The notes beneath the pieces are model-generated. The model worked only from the letters and a program-made list of their open reading frames with translations. It was not told where the DNA came from and made no database searches. Position numbers and translations under genes: made by a program. A stretch of 11,683 bases of DNA from a virus (lineage: Duplodnaviria > Heunggongvirae > Uroviricota > Caudoviricetes), in IMG/VR virus record IMGVR_UViG_2663762839_000001, positions 1 to 11,683 of that record; one strand, 5' to 3'. Shown in pieces: positions 10,559-11,024 of this stretch (the first letter of the stretch is position 1; every line of letters begins with the position of its first letter).

Positions 10559-10900
10559 TTAAAACTCCCCGAGAACCTGGTCAATCTTGCCGCAGTCAAA
10601 CACCCACGGCATCGTATTACCGGTTTTAGCGTTGGCATTATCCGGTTGTTTCTGGAACGCAACACTGCGTGCCGTGATGATGTCGCCGCTGACCTTGTTT
10701 CGGATCACAATAACGTTATTCCCCCATGTGGCAGAAGACTGGCTCTGTGCGTTATACGCCAGCGACAATTTTTTATTTGTCGGTGATGTCTTCAGAAGGT
10801 TAACGGTAATCGTCCCGCTTTTATCTGCATGGAGACTGTGCATCACTTCGCCATCAGCACCGATGGTCATGGTGTTTTTAGGACCGCCCATCGCAACCAC
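10559..10900 (-). CDS. Small phage tail protein, 113 aa, in the position of a major tail/tube gene; possibly 5'-truncated
   Basis: GTG start at 10900 with AGAGGGG upstream; frame is open only 12 codons further upstream with no start codon; beta-rich sequence; stop is 3 nt before the chaperone start. Confidence 0.45.
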   Translation of the reverse strand: MVAMGGPKNTMTIGADGEVMHSLHADKSGTITVNLLKTSPTNKKLSLAYNAQSQSSATWGNNVIVIRNKVSGDIITARSVAFQKQPDNANAKTGNTMPWVFDCGKIDQVLGEF

Positions 10901-11024
10901 AATCCCCTCTTCAGAACTTGCAGAACCGTAGCGGCGTCATGTCCGCTTTCTACCCGCACGAATCTGAATTATCACGCCGAGTTAAACAATTAATCAGAGC
11001 AGCAAAGAAACAACTGGAGGCGTT

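Follow-up and report, generated by a model that had tools for sequence, protein, structure and literature searches.

A truncated tail-tube gene marks a probable large-deletion scar in a defective Escherichia coli prophage

The upstream edge of the tail gene cluster carried by an 11,683-bp Escherichia coli contig (positions 10559-11024) is, in all likelihood, the scar of a large deletion in a temperate phage that is now defective, and represents ordinary prophage decay. The contig, CDRI01000217.1 of draft assembly GCA_000946855.1, was analysed over its entire length and is referred to below as the window. At this edge a tail-tube gene and a cIII gene, both 5'-truncated, meet head to head. The initial annotation had described the boundary as a recombination or deletion scar, and alignment to intact relatives bears this out: tube gene homology ends at position 10930 and cIII/kil DNA is found from position 10928. 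The element belongs to a kind already well known: a cryptic prophage remnant that bears the scar of a deletion at a microhomology.

Results

A tail-tube gene without its 5' end

Positions 10559..10930 of the minus strand hold codons 24-146 and the stop codon of a tail-tube gene of the DUF3277 family (PF11681), identified from Pfam matches, DNA identity and translation. Previously called DUF3277, the Pfam entry goes under the name KPP10_Orf10, and precomputed tables give it the label Phage_Tube_PhiTE. The gene-finder call within this segment is the 113-aa ORF with a GTG start that the initial annotation had placed at the beginning of the tail cluster; it occupies positions 10559-10900 (-), and its product appears in the source record as 'putative phage related protein [Escherichia coli]'. 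Also as reported initially, translation shows the frame to be open for 12 codons 5' of the GTG (RRYGSASSEEGI), up to a TGA at 10937-10939. When aligned to its intact relatives, the remnant proves to lack the first 23 codons, the start codon and the ribosome-binding site, and its first native codon is codon 24 (TAC, window position 10930).

By sequence, the ORF belongs to the tube family. Its residues 2-111 match profile positions 35-144 of the 144 in PF11681 (E = 2.8e-46) with a score of 157.5 bits, the cutoff being 25, and it scores 86.7 against a cutoff of 80 with the NCBIfam gp105 phage family. It does not contain the full-length PF11681 domain with its conserved N-terminal segment. The tube gene encodes 146 amino acids in every intact relative, and the intact homologue from E. 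coli B27 matches PF11681 over positions 1-144 of 144, as against 35-144 here; the ORF product is thus not the complete, conserved tube protein that the initial annotation had named as the finding that would overturn its interpretation. Among solved structures, the tube protein of cyanophage Pam3 (PDB 8hdr, E = 1e-9) is closest to the intact protein. This alignment begins at residue 1 (MSTYSFMDVTATLTG versus MKAYSMLNVTATLDG), and the segment lost in the window is therefore a conserved part of the fold.

As in intact relatives, the ORF lies directly upstream of genes for a tail assembly chaperone and a tape measure. The sheath-tube-chaperone order is nevertheless broken: the chaperone gene is in place downstream, but the upstream neighbour is cIII/kil and not a DUF3383 sheath gene. 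The gene in the window differs from working members of the family in having no such sheath gene upstream and in lacking its start codon, its ribosome-binding site and residues 1-23. Judged from its sequence, the tube remnant is a pseudogene and not a working family member. The GTG start is a gene-caller default; the native frame is kept from codon 24 (position 10930), and the 113-aa ORF that begins with it can be regarded as a gene-finder artefact within the pseudogene.

It is very improbable that the 113-aa product is instead a complete small tube protein with a genuine GTG start, belonging to a phage whose head genes lie elsewhere in an unusual order. Gene finders do call the ORF, and a GAGGGG motif lies just 5' of the GTG. 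However, members of the family measure 144-146 aa and possess the conserved N-terminal segment, native codons 24-33 are still present 5' of the GTG, and otherwise intact prophages yield a 113-aa call only after a frameshift or nonsense mutation in the upstream codons.

The junction with the early-left region

The initial annotation had proposed that the breakpoint be located by alignment with intact related prophages. A three-way alignment of the window, the intact B27 tube gene and the intact lambdoid cIII/kil region of S56 places it at positions 10928..10930, a deletion or recombination junction at which three bp (GTA on the plus strand, TAC in the tube sense) are common to both parents. Among 5,426 complete E. 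coli genomes searched, every match to the intact tail module breaks off at position 10930. From position 10928 rightwards the window consists of DNA from a lambdoid early-left region, 98-99% identical in 110 E. coli genomes.

The gene cut on this side of the junction is cIII (10931..11040, +), which matches PF08134 over profile positions 8-37 of 37 and so lacks the first 7; the ORF called here (10918-11040) begins with a TTG inside tube-derived DNA. Next comes kil (11025..11177, +), the gene of the lambdoid early-left operon that encodes an inhibitor of host cell division, recognised by its match to PF06301 (Lambda_Kil, E = 1.6e-20) and annotated as kil in the matching genomes. Its start at 11025 lies 125 bp from position 10900, in agreement with the earlier description of oppositely oriented small genes beginning about 125 bp from the 113-aa ORF; the cIII-family ORF overlaps this 125-bp gap. 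Further early-left DNA, recognised by homology to sister contigs (see below), extends from 11178 to 11421 (+) and comprises an ORF of 35-40 aa and the 5' part of a 102-aa gene, which is interrupted at position 11422 by an IS1203/IS629 element. Sister contigs free of the IS run on into the 102-aa gene and then into recT and gp157, and homology to them ends at 11421. The last segment (11422..11683, -) is an end of this IS3-family element and is also the end of the contig. It is 100% identical to loci for IS1203 family transposases and encodes a C-terminal transposase fragment that matches NCBIfam IS3 and Pfam rve_3.

Intact relatives and the extent of the loss

Over positions 5268-10930 the window is 97.5-98% identical to tail modules of intact prophages found among the 5,426 complete E. 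coli genomes. The same block is related to that of isolated, active phages, with 95% DNA identity for vB_EcoM-689R2, -611R5, -683R1 and -606R2 and 82-88% for Salmonella phage SEN34 and Yersinia phage YP3. Gene order from the tube gene to the DUF4282 gene is the same in the window as in these lambdoid-organised myovirus prophages and phages, E. coli identities amounting to 95-98%.

The prophage of strain B27 is a single lambdoid-organised myovirus situated between dsdC/torI and intS/argW. Its genes are arranged in the order torI, ea22, DUF2737, gp157, recT, kil, cIII, N, rexAB, cI, cro, cII, O, dnaB and nin, followed by Q, tRNAs, lysis, terminase, head, sheath, tube and tail genes and by intS, next to argW. 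The 146-aa tube gene is preceded by a gene for a 381-aa DUF3383 sheath and by neck terminator, head, portal and terminase genes; downstream of the DUF4282 gene are the genes for the spike, the gp25-like protein, baseplate J, the wedge and the fibres. A distance of 24 kb separates kil/cIII from the tube gene, with the same orientation as in the window, so that one collinear internal deletion of approximately 24 kb would generate the window junction. Relative to B27, the missing DNA (about 24 kb) includes N, cI, cro, O, dnaB, Q, the lysis, terminase, head, neck and sheath genes and the start of the tube gene. Intact relatives carry immunity, replication, Q, lysis, terminase, portal, head, neck, sheath, full tube, spike, J, wedge and fibre genes, whereas the window keeps only some 5.7 kb of such a genome. 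The head, sheath and full-size tube genes that the initial annotation had found wanting are indeed absent from the whole contig, as is terminase.

The B27 prophage has its integrase gene intS (by argW; L001, 1603-2996) and its excisionase-like gene torI (L143, 5332-5532) at opposite ends. Both are gene names of the K-12 cryptic prophage KplE1/CPS-53 and appear in the titles of papers on KplE1, and this K-12 remnant may descend from a phage with the same integration module as the B27 prophage.

The 5' end of the tube gene is intact in all 299 complete E. coli genomes that carry the region, as well as in each of the 110 IMG/VR and 36 metagenome copies examined. None of the 5,426 complete E. coli genomes contains the window junction, a second junction that joins dnaB to the tube gene (see below) or the whole window. 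Two scans of contigs representing one genome per species gave no match to the junction sequence or to a conserved tube 24-mer; the element is therefore in no species-representative genome.

The retained tail block

Downstream of the tube remnant, the tail genes are intact and in the minus orientation. The tail assembly chaperone (10103..10555, 150 aa; PF21822, phrog_1688) is identical to that found in thousands of intact prophages. The tape measure gene (7937..9946; phrog_2276, E = 4.5e-282) includes a C-terminal lytic transglycosylase region and is annotated as a lytic transglycosylase in B27. Profile matches and the B27 gene order identify the genes that follow as those for a Dit-like baseplate protein (7350-7937), a plug resembling Pam3 gp18 (7048-7350), the baseplate hub (5984-7045), a second 113-aa protein distinct from the tube ORF (5639-5980) and the DUF4282 protein (5346-5585). 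Between chaperone and tape measure (9946-10100), intact relatives have an annotated DUF6889 protein of 54-58 aa that overlaps the tape-measure start; by analogy with other tails, this protein may be the part by which a frameshift extends the chaperone.

Homology to intact prophages covers positions 5268-10930 only, which puts the far end of the retained block at 5267..5268. The spike, gp25-like, baseplate J, wedge and fibre genes that lie beyond this point in intact prophages are absent from the window. In their place is a 374-aa chimeric ORF (4139..5263, -) from a second tail module, of the Mu/SfV type, recognised from split PHROG matches: one part corresponds to a tape measure (residues 1-128) and another to a DNA circularisation, Mu gp43-like C-terminus (residues 223-374), with an internal junction near position 4592.

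Positions 1-4142 belong to a different island, 99% identical to loci in other E. coli genomes, which encodes PRiA4_ORF3, several hypothetical proteins, SSB and a P4-family primase. Of the primase, only a C-terminal fragment of 202 aa remains, adjoining the chimeric ORF.

The initial annotation had left a choice between a scar and a tail-only derivative. The first of these stands; the second, in the sense of a functional derivative, does not, the sheath, spike, wedge and fibre genes being absent and the tube gene 5'-truncated. A tailocin or other phage-tail-like particle built with a short tube protein would draw support from the eight consecutive tail genes that are intact from the chaperone to DUF4282, and a contractile-tail gene cluster lacking head genes is what R-type pyocins and other tailocins display. 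Those systems, however, keep sheath, full tube, baseplate and fibre genes together with lysis genes and regulators, most of which the window lacks, its tube being truncated. Neither a complete sheath/tube/baseplate/fibre set nor a lysis cassette with a regulator is found: sheath, spike, gp25-like, baseplate J, wedge and fibre genes are missing, and the contig carries no lysis or regulatory cassette. The tube gene has lost its conserved N-terminus and its translation signals, with no promoter-like site upstream, and neither end of the block is complete when set against intact relatives. We therefore hold a functional particle to be highly unlikely.

Sister contigs and successive losses

The identical junction is found in at least seven other assemblies, which differ from the window by 0-1 SNP over 2.9 kb; carriers include GCA_016791725.1, ERZ28535814, SRR24987909, ERR11842055, SRR27594053 and SRR27732509. 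Such near-identity across assemblies indicates that the junction is real and clonal, and belongs to one clone-like lineage. The boundary is genuine and not an artefact of assembly, as independently made assemblies from NCBI, ENA and Logan share the identical junction sequence. A chimera wrongly joining two prophage regions might be suspected in a short draft contig that ends in an IS. Yet the junction recurs base for base across pipelines and samples, and the 3 bp common to the parents are too few for an assembler to bridge; we give this explanation practically no weight.

The longest and least decayed sister contig, L181, reads proB, proA, integrase, xis, left arm, kil, the truncated cIII, and then the tail block from the truncated tube gene through a truncated spike gene (208 aa). 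Beyond the spike gene are a truncated PF17482 sheath gene, a PF10618 tube gene, a second tape measure gene and a DNA_circ_N gene. A further contig, L186, shares with the window the absence of 2.6 kb present in L181, the resulting junction lying at window position 5268 with a 2-nt overlap. The window has in addition lost 1.76 kb that L186 keeps, with a junction near position 4592, and this loss created the 374-aa chimeric ORF. The IS1203/IS629 copy at 11422 is present only in the window and absent from the sister contigs, including L006, L010 and L181; its insertion is therefore the latest event in the lineage. The window contig is thus the most eroded member of the series L181, L186, window, in which the further deletions have 2-nt overlaps. 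Terminase, portal, capsid, sheath, lysis, cI, O and Q genes are absent from it and from the longer sister contigs, the truncated PF17482 sheath gene of L181 apart. The genes truncated at the various breakpoints are those for the tube, cIII, a tape measure and a primase.

The structure of L181 also bears on how the cIII-tube join arose. An illegitimate cross between two phages residing or replicating in the same cell, an SfV-like lambdoid on the thrW/proA side and a B27-type myovirus, might have patched a 6-kb tail fragment of one into the genome of the other. The L181 element adjoins proB-proA and has its integrase at the left-arm end; its B27-type block is bounded by junctions on both sides (cIII with tube, spike with sheath, all four genes truncated) and is followed by the PF10618 tube, the second tape measure and the DNA_circ_N gene. 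Moreover, the cIII allele of the window is of the S56 type and not that of B27, and no single intact parent with both of the window's exact alleles (cIII and tail) was identified. The presence of a second, Mu/SfV-type tail module at proBA in L181 implies at least one further inter-prophage event, making a cross possible for the cIII-tube join too. Against this, gene order and orientation exactly fit a collinear internal deletion in B27-type prophages, and the dnaB and erf junctions described below are likewise collinear with single prophages (strains T28R and 4588). The left arms are mosaic and common to several phage types, so the integrase context says little. On balance a cross seems rather unlikely, and we infer that the join is a single internal deletion.

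A recurrent breakpoint at tube codon 24

An exact-protein look-up found the same 113-aa ORF called in other contexts. Contig L005 carries a frameshift in an otherwise intact prophage, and in L008, again otherwise intact, codon 24 is changed from TAC to a TAA nonsense codon. In L007 and L015 a dnaB fragment abuts the tube remnant (5971-5973 and 2471-2473, respectively), next to evgSA-emrKY; in L020 the abutting fragment is from erf (1551-1553). The cIII, dnaB and erf deletions all end at the same T of tube codon 24, with microhomologies of 3, 2 and 1 nt. Parental dnaB and tube genes occur together in one prophage of strain T28R, and parental erf and tube genes in one prophage of strain 4588; all three types of junction are collinear with internal deletions of B27-type prophages.

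Descent of the three junctions from a common ancestor would predict a shared derived tail haplotype. This was rejected: the haplotypes differ, and each is nearest to different intact prophages. Over its first 640 nt the cIII-type block is identical to B27; the dnaB-type block has identical counterparts among other intact copies, and the erf-type block, which differs from the window at 100 of 2,860 nt, is closer to other intact prophages. Three distinct tail haplotypes speak against a single junction in a common ancestor. By our own post hoc estimate, three ends would coincide by chance with a probability of about 1e-3, taken over codons 8-33, approximately the range within which the exact-protein look-up can detect a breakpoint. 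A fourth disruption is seen in contig L180 (positions 1-40; Logan ERR8651370_245), where the tube gene is fused near codon 32 to an IS end; this point lies 25 nt downstream of the recurrent breakpoint. The first 25 nt of this contig are what we take to be a terminal repeat of IS186 (reverse complement CATAAGCGCTAACTTAAGGGTTGTG), which would represent a separate IS event within this short stretch. Positions other than codon 24 are thus hit too.

Several explanations for the recurrence were considered and rejected. Folding of the DNA at the breakpoint is no better than that of shuffled sequences (z = +1.2 and -0.1 for the two strands), which disposes of a hairpin or palindrome. The site is not a mosaic-module boundary: the 110 IMG/VR and 36 metagenome copies are intact there, and upstream divergence begins at least 160 nt away, in the sheath gene. 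Inspection by eye for gix/hix-like invertase sites, lambda cos-like sequences, Chi, att cores and several restriction sites gave none that fits all three junctions. Partial DUF3277 proteins of 107, 116 and 117 aa in the 90% cluster proved to be contig-end fragments and not new junctions.

That different deletions have coincident ends suggests a fixed DNA end at this site, possibly arising from IS excision. It is conceivable, if somewhat doubtful, that codon 24 (GGG|TACGG) is a hotspot for such an end, produced by insertion or excision of an IS629-type element or by a sequence-specific nuclease that targets this family of phages. The deletions resemble those promoted by the IS-excision enhancer (IEE) at IS629/IS1203 in their short-microhomology joins and in having one fixed end with variable others, and an IS1203/IS629 copy is present in the window itself (11422-11683), 490 bp from the junction. 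This copy is, however, a later arrival, absent from the sister contigs. Duplication of 3 bp is characteristic of IS3-family elements and would fit TAC as a retained duplication. Among the 299 complete genomes, 110 IMG/VR copies and 36 metagenome copies, none was found to have an IS at tube codon 24. Passages in the literature on IS629/IS1203 (PMC9943667; bioRxiv 10.1101/2023.06.07.543989) describe excision with adjacent deletions of a few nt to more than 40 kb, and report a fixed end, variable partners and short microhomology as the outcome.

In the contig with the dnaB junction (L184, the same as L007), positions 9090-16623 are another decayed copy of the tail module, beside evgS-evgA-emrK-emrY. 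An SSB fragment here takes the place of dsdAXC and of the left arm of the phage, and two internal deletions run from the chaperone to the tape measure and from the tape measure to the plug. Ahead of the spike gene there is an inserted YafO-toxin gene pair, and a resolvase/invertase gene follows the gp25-like gene.

Discussion

The history that best accounts for the boundary would start from a lambdoid-organised myovirus prophage of a type common in E. coli, with the gene order recT-kil-cIII, N-cI-cro-O-dnaB-Q, lysis, terminase, head, neck, DUF3383 sheath, DUF3277 tube, chaperone, tape measure, baseplate and fibres. The inside of cIII would then have been fused to tube codon 24 by an illegitimate join at the 3-bp microhomology TAC, with removal of about 24 kb of DNA, comprising the immunity, replication, lysis, packaging, head, neck and sheath genes and both operon promoters (pL and the Q-dependent late promoter). 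The downstream tail genes would thereby have been left intact in sequence but orphaned and unable to build a tail. Later events in the same lineage were the losses of DNA at 5268 and near 4592 and the insertion of IS1203/IS629 at 11422.

The lost pL promoter is situated 5' of N, and inspection of the minus strand ahead of the tube remnant yielded no promoter-like site. The remnant is probably transcriptionally silent. That all eight downstream tail genes are intact might reflect their being kept for some use, yet it also fits a recent event. The youth of the lineage, indicated by the 0-1 SNP between copies, would seem to explain their state better than selection does.

The element has the attributes of a cryptic prophage. 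Its close relatives are intact elsewhere, as prophages (97.5-98% identity) and as isolated vB_EcoM phages (95%), and it has itself lost essential lytic modules and has truncated genes at its breakpoints. In this it resembles KplE1/CPS-53 (at argW), Rac and DLP12, phage blocks stripped of essential modules by deletion and IS elements, with genes truncated at the junctions. Unlike KplE1/CPS-53 at argW, the remnant in the window is placed beside proBA by its sister contigs.

The window thus provides a base-resolved example of the passage from temperate phage to cryptic remnant by microhomology deletion, further deletions and IS insertion. It also serves as a caution: where a phage module opens with a short 'first gene' called from a GTG, that gene can be a truncated pseudogene. 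Wider interest attaches solely to the recurrent breakpoint. If real, it could point to prophage inactivation driven by IS excision or by a nuclease; E. coli would then have a site-directed and repeatedly used means of disarming a common temperate phage.
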